A DNA stretch of 52,027 nt from Basidioascus undulatus (lineage: Eukaryota). A program made the position numbers and the translations under genes. Numbering within the stretch: the stretch's first letter is position 1; each line of letters begins with the position of its first letter. The notes beneath the pieces are model-generated. The model saw nothing but the letters and a program-made list of their open reading frames with translations, was not told the origin of the DNA and searched no databases. Where the stretch lies: NCBI GenBank assembly GCA_000826855.1, contig JTLS01000014.1:1-52027 (forward strand). The letters run 5' to 3'. Below are positions 5,014 to 12,727 of this stretch, in pieces.

Positions 5014-5780
5014 ACAATATGTGGGATATTTGAATTTGCGAGCAATATCTTGATTGCTCCTTCAGCTTGAGACGACTTGCCGTTGCAGATTGTCGATCTT
5101 GTCCCCTGGCGGGTTGTCGTCCAACGCCCTGCTCTTCGATGAAGATCCAAGTCCGATAATCCGTGTTCTATACTTCTACGTTCAAGTAAGTTGTTAAAAC
5201 TTTGGCGTGTAAAAGTTGGTTGAGCAACGCTTTCGCAATATGTGACCGCGACTTCGACTTGCACGCAGGAACAATCCTCAGTTAACCCCTTGGACGGTAA
5301 ATCTTAAGCTTTCAAATGTTAAAAAGGGGATTCGAGTTTTCTGAATATTTGTGCATTGCGCCGTGAGGAACCTCCCCAAAGTGTTCACCGTGAAAAGAAA
5401 TGCACATCACATGGCACCTTGTCTGCAGTGAAAGTCGGGTGCACGTCGACGTGCTATTGGGCGTGCTTGCATGTTTGTCCTGCGGTTTTTTTAAGTTTTG
5501 TTAACTGTAATTACCGCTTTGTCTACATCACTACTTCCGGGCAACATCGCCGACACAGCGGGGCGGGACCTGTCCGCCAACTTCCTAGACTGTGTTGAGC
5601 GCCAGATCCGCGGACGCCCTTGTTCTGGCCGCGCCCCGCCTCCCGGGCCGAACGATGATCGCGCGTCGCTCCCTCGCCCTGACCTTGACCCTCACCGCTC
5701 CTGTACTTGCCCTTTGCTCCCATCCTACACCACAAAAAGCGCCCAGTCGAATAACGAGTCAACCGGTGCTGCAAGCCGCG

Positions 5781-8700
5781 ATGGCGACGTCGAGGGAGGC
5801 GCTCAAGCGCGGCTTCAGCTTATGAGTCTCCCTCTTGGAGCCGTGCTCATCCTCGAGAGTATCAAAGGCTGACGCTGGCGGGATTGGGCGCGATTACAGC
5901 GCACCAGAGGGTTGTGCTCGAGCTGGACTTCTCGGGACATCTGAGGGTACGCTGGGCTTAGTGGTGGGTGCTCAGGAGCGCTGGGCTGAAGATGGAGACA
6001 TGGCGCCACAGGGCTTCACCGAACTCACCGTCACGCCCGTCTCGGACGCGCTCAGGACGGTCCATATTCATTCGAGGCAGGCCCGTGAGTCAACCATCAC
6101 ATGAGGCTCCAGATTGCTCGGCGGAGGCTGCTCTGCTGGGGAGACTGTGATACTGAATCACGAGCCCCACCATCCGCCAGACATCCACCGCGTCCTCGTC
6201 ACGCCGCCCACCCTCCCCTCGACCGCCGCGCCCCTCCCCGCCGAGTTCTCCCACAGCGACCCCCTCCAACACATCACCCTCTCCGAGACCGAGGGCAAGG
6301 TCGACGTTCACCGGCATACCGAGATCAAGCGCAAGGTCTTCTCAGCTCTGGCCGAGGGCGAGGAGGGCGAGCTCAGCATTGCGCTTCCGCCGAATTGCGT
6401 GGTCCGGGGTGCTAGTGATGGAGGTCAACGTGCGTCTATGGTCCTTCGGAGTATGGGTTGTATGGCGGGGCTGATGGAGGTCCGGGTCTGTAGCGAACTC
6501 CCCTCTTCCTGGAACGCCCTCCGCTCAGGCGGCCAGCTCTGCGCAAGAGTTTGCACCTATTACAATTACGATCGAGTTCTCCGTCTCGAATCCGTCGGAA
6601 GGCGTCCAGTTCATCAAGCCTTCCGAGGCGTCGCCCTATGTGCGCTGCGCTCACAGTGTCGTTTCGTTACCTTTTGCCTCTTCTGACCCCGCTGTTTGCA
6701 GCGCGTCCCTCACCTCTACACCGCCTCCACCTGCCCCGATTTCGCGCGCTGCTGGGTCCCCTGCGTAGACAGCTTATGGGAGCGCTGCACTTGGGAGCTC
6801 GAGTTCATTGTGCCGCGCTTCCTGCGCGCCGAAGACGACGAGGGCCACGACGAGGAGGCGGACGAGCCGATTGTTGTTGTGGCCAGTGGGGAGTTGATCG
6901 AGCAGGTGCGTAAGCTCTGGATCCGCTGATGAAAAGCGGGGAAAGGCTGAGCTGGTTGGGACTTCAGGTCGCCCACCCGAGCAACTCGACGAAGACTATC
7001 TTCCACTACTCGCAGTCGCTGCCGACTTCCGTCCAGCACATCGCCTTCGCCGCAGGCCCGTTCGAAGTTCTTCCCCTCACCTCCTCCATCTCGACCTCCT
7101 CCACGTCTCTATACGCCTTCGCCCTTCCCGGCTCCTCGTCCTCCCTCTCCGCCTCGACCTCCGTCATCCCCCGTGCTCTCGCCTTCTACTCCTCCGAGCA
7201 TGGCTCTTACCCCTTTTCTTCGTTCAAAACCGTCTTCGTTCACGACCCGCCCGCGCCGGTCCACACCGCCGCGACGCTCGTCCTCCTCAGCACGGACCTC
7301 CTGCACCCGCCCTCGGCGATCGAGCAGGCGCTCGAGACGCGGCACGTCCTCGCGCAGGCGCTCGCGACGCAGTGGAGCGGCATCAACATCGTCCCGCGCA
7401 CGTGGGCAGACGTGTGGATCGTCCAGGGCCTCGCGAGTTACATCGCGGCGCTCTTCCTCAAGAAGACGATGGGCAACAACGAGTTCCGGTTCAGGATGAA
7501 GAAGGACATGGATCGCGTCGCCATGACGGACACGGGTCGCCTCCCGCCGCTCTGCGTCCCCAACGCGCTCGAACCGCCAAACGACGCGGACGCGCCGTTC
7601 CTCGCGCTCAAGGCGCCCCTCATTCTCCACATCCTCGACCGCCGCCTCGCGAAGTCCGGCACGTCCCACGGCCTCAGCCGCGTCATCCCAAAGATCTTCC
7701 TCGGCGCGCTCAGCGGCGACGTCGCCCTCAGCACGCACCACTTTCTCCGCGTCTGCCGCAAGGTCTCGGGCGTCGACCTCCGCCAGTTCGCGGACCAGTG
7801 GATCTACGGCTCCGGCTGCCCGCACTTCTCTGTCGCCGCGCACTTCAATCGGAAGAAGATGTGCGTCGAGATGAGCGTCAGGCAGGAGTCGCCCGCTGTG
7901 GGAATGCTAGGGGAGGGCACGCCCGAGGCGCACGCGATGCGTCCGGTGCAGGTCTTCGAGGTGCGTCTGCGTCTGCTGGGGAATCGGCTTCTCCGCGTCC
8001 TCTGATCAGCACTGATACAAGCGCACGCTGCGTTCACGCCCAACAGGGTCAGATGACGATCCGGATTCACGAAGCGGACGGGACGCCGTACGAGCACGTC
8101 CTCGACATCCGCGACCCGTTCAAGCGCTTCGACGTCCCCTTCAACACGAAGTACAAACGTGTCCGACGGAACACGAAGCGGTTCCAAGCGCGGCAGGCTG
8201 CGGCCGCGGCGGCCGCGCAGGGCGACGAGGAGGCTGCGGAGGCGATCGGCATGATCGACCTGGGGTTCGGGCTCGGGCTGTGGGAGGAGGAGGCCGAACG
8301 CGAGCGCTGGCGCGTCGAGGACTGGACGGAGGAGGACGAGGTCACCATGGGCCAGGCGACGTACGAGTGGATCCGCGTCGATGCCGACTTCGAGTGGATC
8401 GCACAGATCCGGTTCGAGCAACCGGACTTCATGTGGGTGTCCCAGCTGCAGAGGGACAGGGACGTCGTAGCGCAGCTTGAGGTGCGTGCGCGGCGGTATA
8501 TGTGCTCGCTTGAAACCACTTGGCCGACGGTCATATGCAGGCCGTACATGCCCTCGCCGCCAAGCCGACGAAGCTCGTCTCTAGCATGCTCACCCGCACG
8601 GTGCTCGTCACCAACTACTTCTTCCGCATCCGAATGGAAGCGGCGATGGCGTTGCAGAGGGTGCGTACTGTCTCTTTCGCGTTGTTTCCGCACGGCGTTC

Positions 8701-11700
8701 TGACGGATCCCCGCGTCAACAGTGCGCGATCCCCGAGCTCGAGTTTATCGGCCTCTTCCACCTCTTCAAGATCTTCCAGACCCGCTGGTGCTACCCGCCC
8801 GAGCACGAGACGCACGACCCCTTCGGCTTCCGCTGTATCCCGCTCGCGAACGACTTTGAGGACTTTACCGAGTACTTCCTCCGCAAGGTGCGTCTGACGA
8901 ATCTGCTGCTGCCCGTCGTGATGAAGTGCCTGTATGCTGATGCTCTGGGGCTGATCGATCGCGCAGAGTGTCATCTCAACCCTCTCGCATGTCCGCGACG
9001 AGAATGGGCGGACGTTCCCTCAGATCCGCCAGTTCCTCATCGACCTCCTCCAGTACAACGACAACTCGGCCAATCGCGTATGCTTTCCCATCTTCTCATC
9101 CTACCGCAGCCTCAACGTTTCTGACAGCTGCGTTTCGTGGGATTGCTCAGTACTCCGACAGCTACTATCTCGCGACCGTGATCAACTGCCTGGCGTCAGC
9201 CATCGTGCCCACCATCCACCACGAGACGAGTCTCCTGCTCGACGACGTCGACCCCGACGCGGACGACGCACAGGGACTCGAGCTCAAGCGCGCGGCGCTC
9301 GAGGAGGTCGAGAGATACATGGGCATGGACCGCCTCGTGCCGTCTTTCCAGAACGTCGTCACCATCGCCGGGATGCAGGTCCGTCGCTTGATCCATCAAT
9401 CTACAAACGCACCGGCATTTCCGTCTGACATGTTTTTCGACAGTTCAACCTCAAGCTCATGCTCGCCGGTCAGATACCCAATGACGGAAAGCTGTTCCTG
9501 CCGTACACCCGGTTAGTTTCGGCCGCGATCTGTGAGAGGGAGAAAAGACACGAACTGACTCGGTGCGCTTTTAGCGAGGGCAACTATCCTCCGGTTCGCA
9601 CGATGGCGTTCGACAGCCTGCTCCTGCTCGGCGCGATCCGCTACAAGCCGCTGATCCAGTACATGACGGCGGTGTTGGCGTACGACGAGTCGCGCACGGT
9701 GCGCCGCCGGCTCGCGCAGAGCATGTGCGAGGCTATTGTCGTCCTCCTCGCGACGGGCGACATCGCGGCGGTGAACAAGAAGGAGGCGACGTTGATCGAG
9801 GAAGAGGCACAGCTCGCTCAAGCTCAGGCGAAGGCGCCTACTGCCAAGAGCGAGACGGAGAAGATGATCAAGGGCGTGCGGAAGGAGCTCGGCAAGATCG
9901 CGAGTCTCCGCGCGGGTATCATGAACGTCTTGCTGTACGTTGTTCATTCTAGCTTTTCCGAAGAAGGAGGATGAGGTCGAGCTGACGTGCTTGGGCGATC
10001 ATAGCGCTCCTGACGCCGACTACGAGATTCGCTGGACGCTACTCAAGCTCGCGGACATCCTCTACAAGGGCCACGCCGAGCCGCCTCCCCGCGTCTTTAT
10101 CCACCTCCCGCCGACGCCCGCGACCGAGGCTCCGCCGCTCTCGGCGACGTTGCCGAAGATCCGCTTGTCGGTCAGCGGCGAGGCCGGCCGTGCGGAGTCA
10201 CCCAAGCCGTTCAGTGCGTCTAACATGTATTGCGTTGAAGCTCAGCGTTCCCGAAAACTGACCACCCTTAATCACTCGCAGCCTTCGAACAACCACTTCC
10301 AACCCCGACAATCAAGCTCAAGCAGGCCGCCGTCCCCGCCGTCCCCAAGGTCTCAGCGCCCCCGCCTGTCCCCGCGCGTGCGCCCGCGCCCGTCGTGCCG
10401 TCTCTTCCAACTCCGGCCAAGAAGAAGAAGGAGAAGCCCGTCCCACAGGCGCAGCGCGCGGGCATGACGGCTACGGACGTGAGCGCGTGCCGCGCGACGC
10501 ACAAGAAGCTCGTCAACCACAAGTCGGCGATCTGGTTCCACCAGGCCGTCGACCCGATTCGCGATGGCGCTCCGAAGTGCGTGTGCTTTCTGCTTTACAA
10601 GCGTAGATCTGCATCAGGGTAGTGAAGTTGACTGACGATGGTGGTGCTGCCGGCAGTTACTTCGAGATCATCAAGAACCCAATGGACCTGTCGACGATGT
10701 CCGCCAAGCTCGAAGGCGGCCTTTACAAGGACCGCTTCGCGTTCGAGGCCGACTTCAAGCTCATCATCAAGAACGCGCTTACCTACAACGCCGGCGAGAA
10801 CCCCGTCAGCGCCGCTGCGAAGGAGCTCGACGAGTTTTTCGACAAGCGTACGTTCTTTATCTTCTCCTCCAGAACGTTGCTACAAATGATTGATAGTCTG
10901 CTTGTGACGACGAACGTTTGTGACCCACAGAATGGCAGCGCGTTGCGAAGACGCTCGAAAGCCGAAATGCAGGCGGAGCACCGCAGCCCGCACCCGCGCA
11001 GCCTGCCTCGCAGCCAGCGCCTCGCCCATTCCCCATCGCGCCACCGCCCACGCCGTCAACTTCCACACTCCCGTCTGTATCCCCTACTCCCTCGCAGCCC
11101 GCCCCTACGCTCGCCGTAGCCCCCGCCCCTACGCTCGCCGTAGCCCCCGCGCTGGCGAAGCCGTCAATCTCGCTCAAGCTCAAGGCGCCGAAGCCTCCGA
11201 CTGCGCCCAAGCCCGAGGCATCGCCGCCGAAACCGAAAAAGGTCAAGCTCGCGAAACCGCCAGCGCCAGCGCCGCCACCGGAGCCGAGCGTCGACGACCT
11301 CCTCGCTGCCGAAGCGCACGTTCCCCCGCCGGCGCCGGTACCGAAACCGCCGAAGAAACACAAGCGCCCGGCCGAGCCGAGCGCGGACGATCTCCTGGCT
11401 GAGGAGGTCAGCGCGATGGAGGCCGGAAGCGCGTCGCCGCCGAAGCGCGAGAAGAGCAAAGAGAAGGAGCGAGAGAAGAGCAAAGAGAAGGAGCGCGAGA
11501 AGAGCAAAGAGAAGGAGCGCGAGCGAGACAAGCCGCCAAAGGAGAAGAGCAGCAAGAAGAAGGACGGCGTGGTGGCTGCAGCCGTGCCGAGCGCGCCGAC
11601 TGCGCCGTCGGCGTCCCTCCCTCCTGTACCAACGTCTTCAAGCGCAGCCAGCGTAACACGCGCCCCGTCAGAAGCACCTTCGGCTGGCTCCGGCTCGCGT

Positions 11701-12727
11701 CATGGCTCACGCCCGCCTTCGGCGCCGCCTGGCGGCCGCCCTATCGACTTCAAGAAGTGCAAGCAGGTGCTCAAAAAGCTCATGGCGATTCCCGAGTCGC
11801 TCATCTTCAACCAGCCTGTCGACCCGATTCTGAACGGATGCCCAACGTGAGTTCCCTCCTGACGCGCGATCTGCACTTTGATCTAATGCGCGACTTCTTC
11901 GCAGATACTGGGACGAGATCAAGCGTATGCGACTTTTGCTGCAGAATGCCGGAGCACTTGCTGACGTGTCCTTCCATGCAGATCCGATGGACTTCGGCAC
12001 CATCATGGCCAAGCTCGACGCCAAGAAGTACTTGACCATGGAGCAGTTCGCGGCTGACGTCGAGCTCGTCTACGCCAACTGCCGAAAGTTCAATGGCGAC
12101 GGCGCGGTCTCCGAGCTTACGCGCGCGACGTGCGACCCGTCTGAGCGCTTCTGGGGGAAGGAGTGGAGCGCCGCCAACACGCCCAAGCTGGCGCCGAACG
12201 AGAAGCGGGCCGCCAGTGCCATGATCAAACAGCTCAAACAGCAGGACAGGTACGCGCGACCATCTGCTCGACCACCAGGTCGCAGGGGATCTGACATCTC
12301 TCGCAGTGCCGTTTGGTTCCTGGCTCCTGTACGGAAAGCTCACGGTCTTTTGGCTCGTTGAAACAACCGCTGATTGAAGAGGGGTTCACCGCAGGTTGAT
12401 CCGGTCGCCCTCAACATCCCGATGTACTTCGAGGTCATCCCGCGCAAGGACGCCCGCGACCTCTCGCTCATCCTGAGCAAGCTCGAGAAAGACCAATACG
12501 CGGACCTGGACGCGCTCGAGGCGGACGTGCAGCTGATGCTCCACAACGCGATCAAGTTCAACGGCCTCAACAGCCCTGTCGGGGAAGCCGCGGAGCGCTT
12601 CGGCGCGGTATTTGCGCAGGCGATCGGCGAGCTGCGCGGCAAAGTGTCCAGCTCGAGCGGGGGCACGAAGCGCAAGGAGGCCGGTGCCGGCGATGGGAGG
12701 TCATCGAAGAAGGCAAAGTTCGGCTAA
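5781..12727 (+). CDS. TAF2: TFIID subunit 2 (M1-aminopeptidase-like fold) with three C-terminal bromodomains, about 21 introns
   Basis: Spliced translation gives MATSREALKRGFSLAHQRVVLELDFSG, ARCWVPCVDSLWERCTWELEF, LAQALATQWSGINI, QFADQWIYGSGCP, GQMTIRIHEADGTPYEH, YEWIRVDADFEW and WVSQLQRDRDVVAQLEA, all Taf2 hallmarks. Three bromodomains follow (WFHQAVDP..YFEIIKNPMDL..YN; IFNQPVDP..PMDF..FN; WFLAPVDP..YFEVI..FN). Stop TAA at 12725-12727. Confidence 0.95.
5822..5897 (+). other. Putative AT-AC intron (TAF2 intron 1)
   Basis: Donor ATGAGT, branch CTGAC at 5869-5873, acceptor TAC. Removal joins TT+A in frame to give RGFSLAHQRVVLELDF. Confidence 0.8.
11101..11148 (+). repeat. Perfect 24-bp tandem duplication encoding APTLAVAP x2
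   Basis: gcccctacgctcgccgtagccccc occurs twice in the TAF2 linker. Confidence 0.9.
11449..11520 (+). repeat. 24-bp coding minisatellite x3 encoding EKSKEKER
   Basis: gagaagagcaaagagaaggagcg(a/c) occurs three times between bromodomains 1 and 2. Confidence 0.9.

Follow-up and report, generated by a model that had tools for sequence, protein, structure and literature searches.

The 52,027-nucleotide stretch of DNA analysed here (the window; contig JTLS01000014.1 of the Basidioascus undulatus assembly GCA_000826855.1) carries on its + strand the gene for TAF2, the TFIID subunit 2, whose first coding-region intron begins with AT and ends with AC. We consider it very probable that this intron, at 5822..5897, is a genuine type II AT-AC intron, removed by the U2-type spliceosome, that it is the counterpart of intron 1 of animal TAF2, and that it has been kept across the Agaricomycotina. 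This reading is carried by the anatomy of the intron, its orthology, the conservation of its termini and a spliced copy of one ortholog, all of which were observed directly.

To begin with the anatomy, the frame opened by the ATG at 5781 reads MATSREALKRGFSL and then meets a TGA at 5823-25, and the frame that follows, ..AHQRVVLELDFSGHLR, contains no ATG, so the gene requires an intron of 3n + 1 nt. Removal of 5822..5897 (76 nt, phase 2) gives ..KRGFSLAHQRVVLELDFSG. Coding exon 1 (5781..5821) then specifies MATSREALKRGFS plus the TT of the next codon, an N-terminus that fits both the Wallemia mellicola protein model P0275 (MAVSREAHKRGFSL..) and an Agaricomycete consensus of ..RE..RRGFS, and exon 2 (5898..5946, placed by sequence and tblastn) completes this Leu codon and continues as AHQRVVLELDFSGHLR. 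The predicted junction in the mRNA is ..TTCAGCTT|AGCGCACC... Within the intron, the 5′ splice site ATGAGT (5822..5827) is an ordinary fungal donor with an A in place of the G at +1, a branch-site motif CTGAC lies at 5869..5873, its branch A (5872) being separated by 25 nt from the final base of the intron, and the sequence ATTAC ends at 5897, so that the terminal AC (5896..5897) is followed directly by an AG (5898..5899) and CGCACCAG. An earlier note on this DNA had given the same ATG, ATGAGT, CTGAC, ATTAC and 76-nt excision, and each of its coordinates was correct when the sequence was re-read.

The other introns of the gene provide a local standard. Twelve GT-AG introns, inferred from tblastn matches and reading frame, are 59-96 nt long, with the donors GTGCGT (7/12), GTACGT or GTACGC (3), GTGAGT (1, intron 3) and GTATGC (1); the motif nearest their 3′ end is CTGAC or CTGAT, with 12-37 nt, mostly 19-26, after its A. 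Except at its two terminal bases, intron 1 resembles these introns in its +2 to +6 bases (TGAGT), its CTGAC and its length of 76 nt. The description of ATGAGT as the local GTGAGT consensus with G changed to A needs some adjustment: GTGAGT does occur in the gene, but the commonest donor is GTGCGT.

Four intron models were built and aligned with homologs: AT-AC 5822..5897, GC-AG 5818..5899, GT-AG 5789..5840 and AT..AG 5822..5899. The protein of the AT-AC model, MATSREALKRGFSLAHQRVVLELDFSGHLRGFTELTV.., aligns with Wallemia mellicola P0275 without a gap (35/45 residues identical) and is likewise gap-free against P0051, P0098 and P0127. Among the four, only the AT-AC boundaries restore the orthologous N-terminus without a gap. 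The AT..AG model was rejected because it shifts the frame, as the earlier note had said of joining the adjacent AG to this donor, and the AG at 5898..5899 is on this ground probably not a 3′ splice site. The same note had held that no in-frame GT precedes the stop, which is incorrect; a GT exists at 5789-90 and, paired with the AG at 5839-40, keeps the frame open.

The conservation of the intron was examined in metagenomes, which were scanned with a degenerate pattern for exon 2 only (HQ[KR]VVLExDF..G; one match in the window, none expected). Because the pattern covers exon 2 only, the ends of the intron could not bias the search. The scan yielded 69 TAF2 loci, 68 of them genomic; the remaining one, L058, is described below. 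Immediately 5′ of exon 2, all 68 genomic loci have AC; in L058 that place is taken by exon 1 itself. A search further upstream for an exon-1 protein motif succeeded in 65 of the 69 loci. In each of the 64 genomic loci among these the intron starts with AT, after the second base of the codon that follows GF[ST], which matches the window in both phase and position. In a further locus, L041, which the exon-1 motif missed, the reading by eye is ..GGRGFT CT|ATGAGT..GCTAC|G, with a donor hexamer identical to that of the window. The earlier note had proposed inspecting the termini across Basidiomycota; the position and phase of the intron, and its AT and AC ends, agree with the window in 65/65 scorable metagenomic loci, a match that is, as judged from these sequences, more than chance.

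Internal signals were compared in 52 unique ortholog introns, extracted with a regular expression that presupposes an AT-type donor, so that the unbiased count of AT remains the 64/64 of the exon-1 motif search. Their donors are ATACGT (27), ATAAGT (17), ATGCGT (5), and ATAAGC, ATATGT and ATGAGT (1 each), and their last three bases are TAC in 50 and CAC in 2. The introns are 52-66 nt long; 37 have the branch motif CTGAC, 10 have another CTRAY-like motif and 5 have none that the regular expression recognizes. The distance from the branch A to the 3′ end is mostly 18-19 nt.

Splicing itself is visible in L058. On the upstream side (191 nt) and on the downstream side (50 nt) this locus is identical to L017, minus exactly 59 nt (ATACGT...TATAC), and it also lacks intron 2. 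The junction cannot be shifted, because the flanking bases differ. L058, which is 96% identical to a Suillus TAF2, is a spliced copy and hence direct evidence for removal of an AT-AC intron at those bases in one Agaricomycete ortholog.

Judged by the nearest named protein, the loci are spread over many Agaricomycete groups; for three of them (L022, L029 and L041) the nearest is the tremellomycete Kwoniella, at 62-68%. All are distant from the window organism (~50-55% identity), whose nearest TAF2 is that of Wallemia. Since Agaricomycete-like loci, Tremellomycete-like loci and the Wallemia-near window share the intron, it is common across the Agaricomycotina. The same exon-2 pattern found 0 loci in the genome contigs collection.

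Two features of the loci deserve separate description. L034, L050 and L061, which are near-identical and closest to a Leucocoprinus TAF2 (P0038, over a 30-residue match), have an intact ..TATAC 3′ end, with more than 1.4 kb of AT-rich, non-coding-looking DNA where exon 1 and the 5′ end of the intron are expected; this DNA could be an insertion into the intron, or the loci could be a rearranged copy. In addition, exon 2 carries an AG among its first 3 nt, 0-1 nt 3′ of the used AC, both in the window and after 51/52 unique ortholog introns, mostly as AC|TAGT. Splicing to this AG would cost the orthologs a single Ser codon and preserve the frame; in L058 the splice falls at the AC. The AG could be no more than part of a Ser AGY codon, or it could help in early recognition of the 3′ splice site.

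Public protein models carry traces of the same intron. In a survey of the best 120 public fungal TAF2 homologs, GF and HQ are separated by exactly three residues in 60, the spacing of the AT-AC model. Of these 60, P0041, P0051, P0080 and P0105 lie on contigs that hardly exceed their coding sequence in length and are presumably transcript assemblies. The other picture is one of faulty N-termini, found in 60/120 models: exon 2 is absent from 29, the donor is read through in 16, 7 begin only at the 3′ end of the intron and 8 have other faults. In the 16 read-through models exon 1 is followed by GF[ST][IL]Y[VRN], mostly ..IYV, which back-translates to AT|ATAYGT, and the 7 models that start late begin with ..T-S-HQ just before exon 2, implying ..AC|N at the 3′ end of the intron. 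These signatures suggest that the orthologous intron is AT-AC in those genes too. Seven named Wallemia mellicola models (P0001 and P0270-P0275), from different strains, have five different N-termini; the conserved MAVSREAHKRGFSLTHQ.. start appears in P0275 (strain CBS 633.66) alone, and the most likely cause is that gene finders do not accept AT-AC introns. The expectation in the earlier note that standard gene predictors would miss such an intron agrees with the 60/120 faulty models.

Which spliceosome would remove this intron can be addressed through its motifs. AT-AC termini are the classic hallmark of the U12-type class, spliced by the minor spliceosome, but neither the window intron nor any of the 52 ortholog introns (0/52) contains an ATATCC donor or a TCCTTRAY branch site. 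The window donor, ATGAGTCT, is not ATATCC(TT), and its 5′ splice site fits the U2-type consensus except at +1. Moreover, positions +3 to +6 vary far less among the AT donors, with G at +5 in 52/52 and T at +6 in 51/52, than among the GT donors of intron 2 in these loci; by analogy, this is the kind of compensation that passages of PMC1557818 describe for GC-AG donors. U12 introns and minor-spliceosome small nuclear RNAs (snRNAs) are reported absent from Basidiomycota in several surveys (PMC2846911, PMC10639083, PMC11347168), and animal TAF2 intron 1 is classed as U2-type (PMC1557818, PMC8280824). An Rfam scan of the window gave 0 matches, a result that says nothing about the rest of the genome. 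With no U12 motifs and no minor spliceosome in the phylum, the intron is therefore assigned to the U2-type (type II) AT-AC class, and splicing of intron 1 would depend on the U2 spliceosome, as judged from motifs and phylum-level literature; a U12-type intron has a negligible chance of being the correct reading. The earlier claim of a U2-type AT-AC first intron in TAF2 is thus borne out by the orthologous protein, the AT..AC orthologs, L058 and the lack of U12 motifs.

Other readings avoid an AT-AC intron altogether. A GC-AG intron at 5818..5899, with donor GCTTAT, acceptor AG at 5898-99 and the protein ..KRGFTHQRVV, would belong to a recognised U2-type class, but it needs a 2-residue deletion against Wallemia P0275 and every other reference tried, and it is 2 residues short of the 60/120 homologs with the GF-x-x-x-HQ spacing. 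GCTTAT is also a poor donor without a G at +5, whereas known GC donors are, in passages of PMC1557818, offset by a strong remainder. Finally, GC stands at the equivalent place in 0/64 genomic ortholog loci; their codons there are TCT, TCC, ACG, ACC, ACT and ACA, and all are AT..AC. We regard this intron as very unlikely. Even less likely is a different start of the gene or a GT-AG intron, with either the GT at 5789 and the AG at 5840 or an upstream exon, which would make the AT..AC termini a coincidence. The 5789-5840 intron does leave the frame open, and an in-frame ATG lies upstream near 5655, but this intron removes the conserved SREALKRGFS, adds 17 unrelated residues and lowers the alignment score against P0275 from 179 to 88; the 52-nt stretch has no CTRAY branch motif (by eye), and the short N-terminus is where the orthologs begin as well. 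A normal GT-AG intron disguised by errors of assembly or sequencing at 5822 and 5897 draws its only support from the rarity of AT-AC introns; it would require two independent errors at exactly the positions that are A and C in 65 independent ortholog loci as well, which makes it extremely improbable.

Some points nevertheless weigh against a conserved, U2-type AT-AC intron and should be set beside the evidence above. That Basidioascus undulatus itself splices 5821 to 5898 is something we infer from its sequence. The GC-AG model at 5818..5899 also leaves the frame open, and its protein is otherwise identical. Between branch site and 3′ end, the window intron is poor in pyrimidines (0.33; mean of the ortholog introns, 0.69). 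For L034, L050 and L061, three of the 68 genomic loci, the 5′ end was left out of the count, since no exon 1 was within range. The absence of the minor spliceosome comes from literature at the level of the phylum rather than from this genome, and the likeness to animal TAF2 intron 1 is one of gene, intron number, termini and U2-type context.

The closest known relative is in animals. Passages of Sheth et al. 2006 (PMC1557818) report a conserved AT-AC II intron in TAF2 of human and Drosophila, and a reverse transcription PCR figure of de Wolf et al. 2021 (PMC8280824) uses TAF2 intron 1 as a major (U2-type) AT-AC control. As described there, the human and Drosophila intron is like that of the window in its gene, its place as the first intron, its AT-AC termini, its otherwise U2-type sequence and its conservation between distant species; 5822..5897 is likewise the first coding-region intron after the ATG at 5781. 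The difference is that animals also have the minor spliceosome, whereas the window intron is found in Basidiomycota, which, according to the surveys, do not. The AT-AC II introns of SCN4A and SCN5A share the AT-AC termini and a U2-type 5′ splice site and were found by experiment to need the major and not the minor snRNAs; in the same passages of PMC1557818, however, they belong to an unrelated gene family, are restricted to vertebrates, and occur in genes that also carry U12-type introns. U12-type AT-AC introns share only the termini and differ in their ATATCC donor, their TCCTTRAY branch near the 3′ end (~10-15 nt) and their dependence on U11/U12, motifs that are absent in the window intron. 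GC-AG introns, too, are non-canonical U2-type introns whose otherwise strong donor makes up for the deviant base, comparable to the near-invariant +5 G and +6 T of the AT donors; but they have one deviant terminal base and return to GT-AG by a single mutation, whereas an AT-AC intron needs two coordinated changes.

For human and Drosophila, the type of intron, the gene and the intron number are already in print, as the cited passages make clear. A full-text literature search on TAF2 together with AT-AC found no report of a fungal case, and searches on AT-AC with fungi or Basidiomycota returned general surveys; excerpts of one study describe AT-AC introns as rare in fungal annotations (Frey and Pucker 2020). 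The presence of the TAF2 AT-AC intron across the Agaricomycotina and the 60/120 faulty fungal TAF2 N-termini therefore appear to be new.

A mechanism for splicing of this intron can be proposed from mutant work. In U2-type introns of yeast and human, mutation of the first base from G to A can be offset by mutation of the last from G to C (PMC1557818). These engineered double mutants follow the same logic of an A rescued by a C in an otherwise ordinary U2-type intron, but they splice less efficiently, whereas the window intron is natural, long-conserved and in an essential gene. On the strength of these mutants, the first catalytic step would tolerate an A at +1, and the second step would require first and last intron bases that fit one another, so that A with C could replace G with G. 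The A..C pair would then direct the joining of exon 1 (ending at 5821) to 5898, and the adjoining AG at 5898-99 would be passed over.

The same requirement offers a reason for persistence. Either single change towards GT-AG would create a mismatched pair in an essential gene, and the intron may therefore be held in a mutational trap; we infer that this two-mutation trap is the simplest explanation of why the intron has persisted, and it would be enough by itself. A bolder version holds that a single AT-AC intron descends from the animal-fungal ancestor at the same codon, was U2-type throughout, and was kept not only by the trap but because a slow or conditional second step sets the dose of a TFIID subunit. 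In such a scheme, the AC would compete with the AG 0-1 nt downstream (in the window and in 51/52 ortholog introns), and the intron would have stayed U2-type AT-AC also in lineages that lost the minor spliceosome. We regard this version as doubtful. For a rate-limiting control point at intron 1, as had been suggested earlier, we have evidence neither for nor against, and the trap explains persistence equally well. If the intron is retained, translation would stop at once in the window (at TGA) and in the 18/52 ortholog introns that begin with ATAAG (at TAA), but not in the ATACGT majority, and an early stop is therefore not a conserved feature.

These results have implications for annotation, evolution and mechanism. 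Allowing AT-AC introns with a U2-type context would mend the models of an essential, universally present gene. A U2-type AT-AC intron is held across the Agaricomycotina in a phylum without the minor spliceosome, and if its position equals that of the animal intron, few individually traceable non-canonical introns would be older, and this would argue that it was U2-type already before fungi lost U12 splicing. With an AG beside the used AC, it also provides a natural substrate for the study of 3′ splice-site choice in the second step.

The identification of the gene at 5781..12727 as TAF2 follows from the names of its homologs and from Pfam domains (PF01433, PF25316, PF25577 and PF00439). A 363-residue exon at 6914-8005 matches proteins named TFIID subunit 2 with E-values down to 1e-159, the best matches being Wallemia mellicola at 71% (the closest) and Agaricomycetes at 53-58%. 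By tblastn, coding sequence extends as far as 12727; the protein, like its homologs, carries bromodomains at its C-terminus, and the exon map indicates at least 13 introns. Beyond exon 2, tblastn and reading frame place an ordinary GT-AG intron 2 at 5947..6011 (GTACGC..CAG, 65 nt); exon 3 (6012..6084), which reads GFTELTVTPVSDALRTVHIHSRQA.., is placed by tblastn and the N-terminal alignment, and a third intron, again an ordinary GT-AG intron located by tblastn and frame, lies at 6085..6180 (GTGAGT..CAG, 96 nt).

Two further observations concern the ends of the gene. The in-frame ATG near 5655 opens a segment (5655-5780, ..MIARRSLALTLTLTAPVLALCSHPTPQKAPSRITSQPVLQAAM..) that has no counterpart in the N-termini of homologs and probably belongs to the 5′ untranslated region or lies upstream of the transcription start. 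At the other end, bromodomain-like C-terminal segments give tblastn matches at ~10419-10849, 11707-12181 and 12233-12718. Pfam PF00439 is likewise found in basidiomycete TAF2 homologs, and the fusion of TAF2 with bromodomains seems to be general in the basidiomycete group rather than peculiar to the window.

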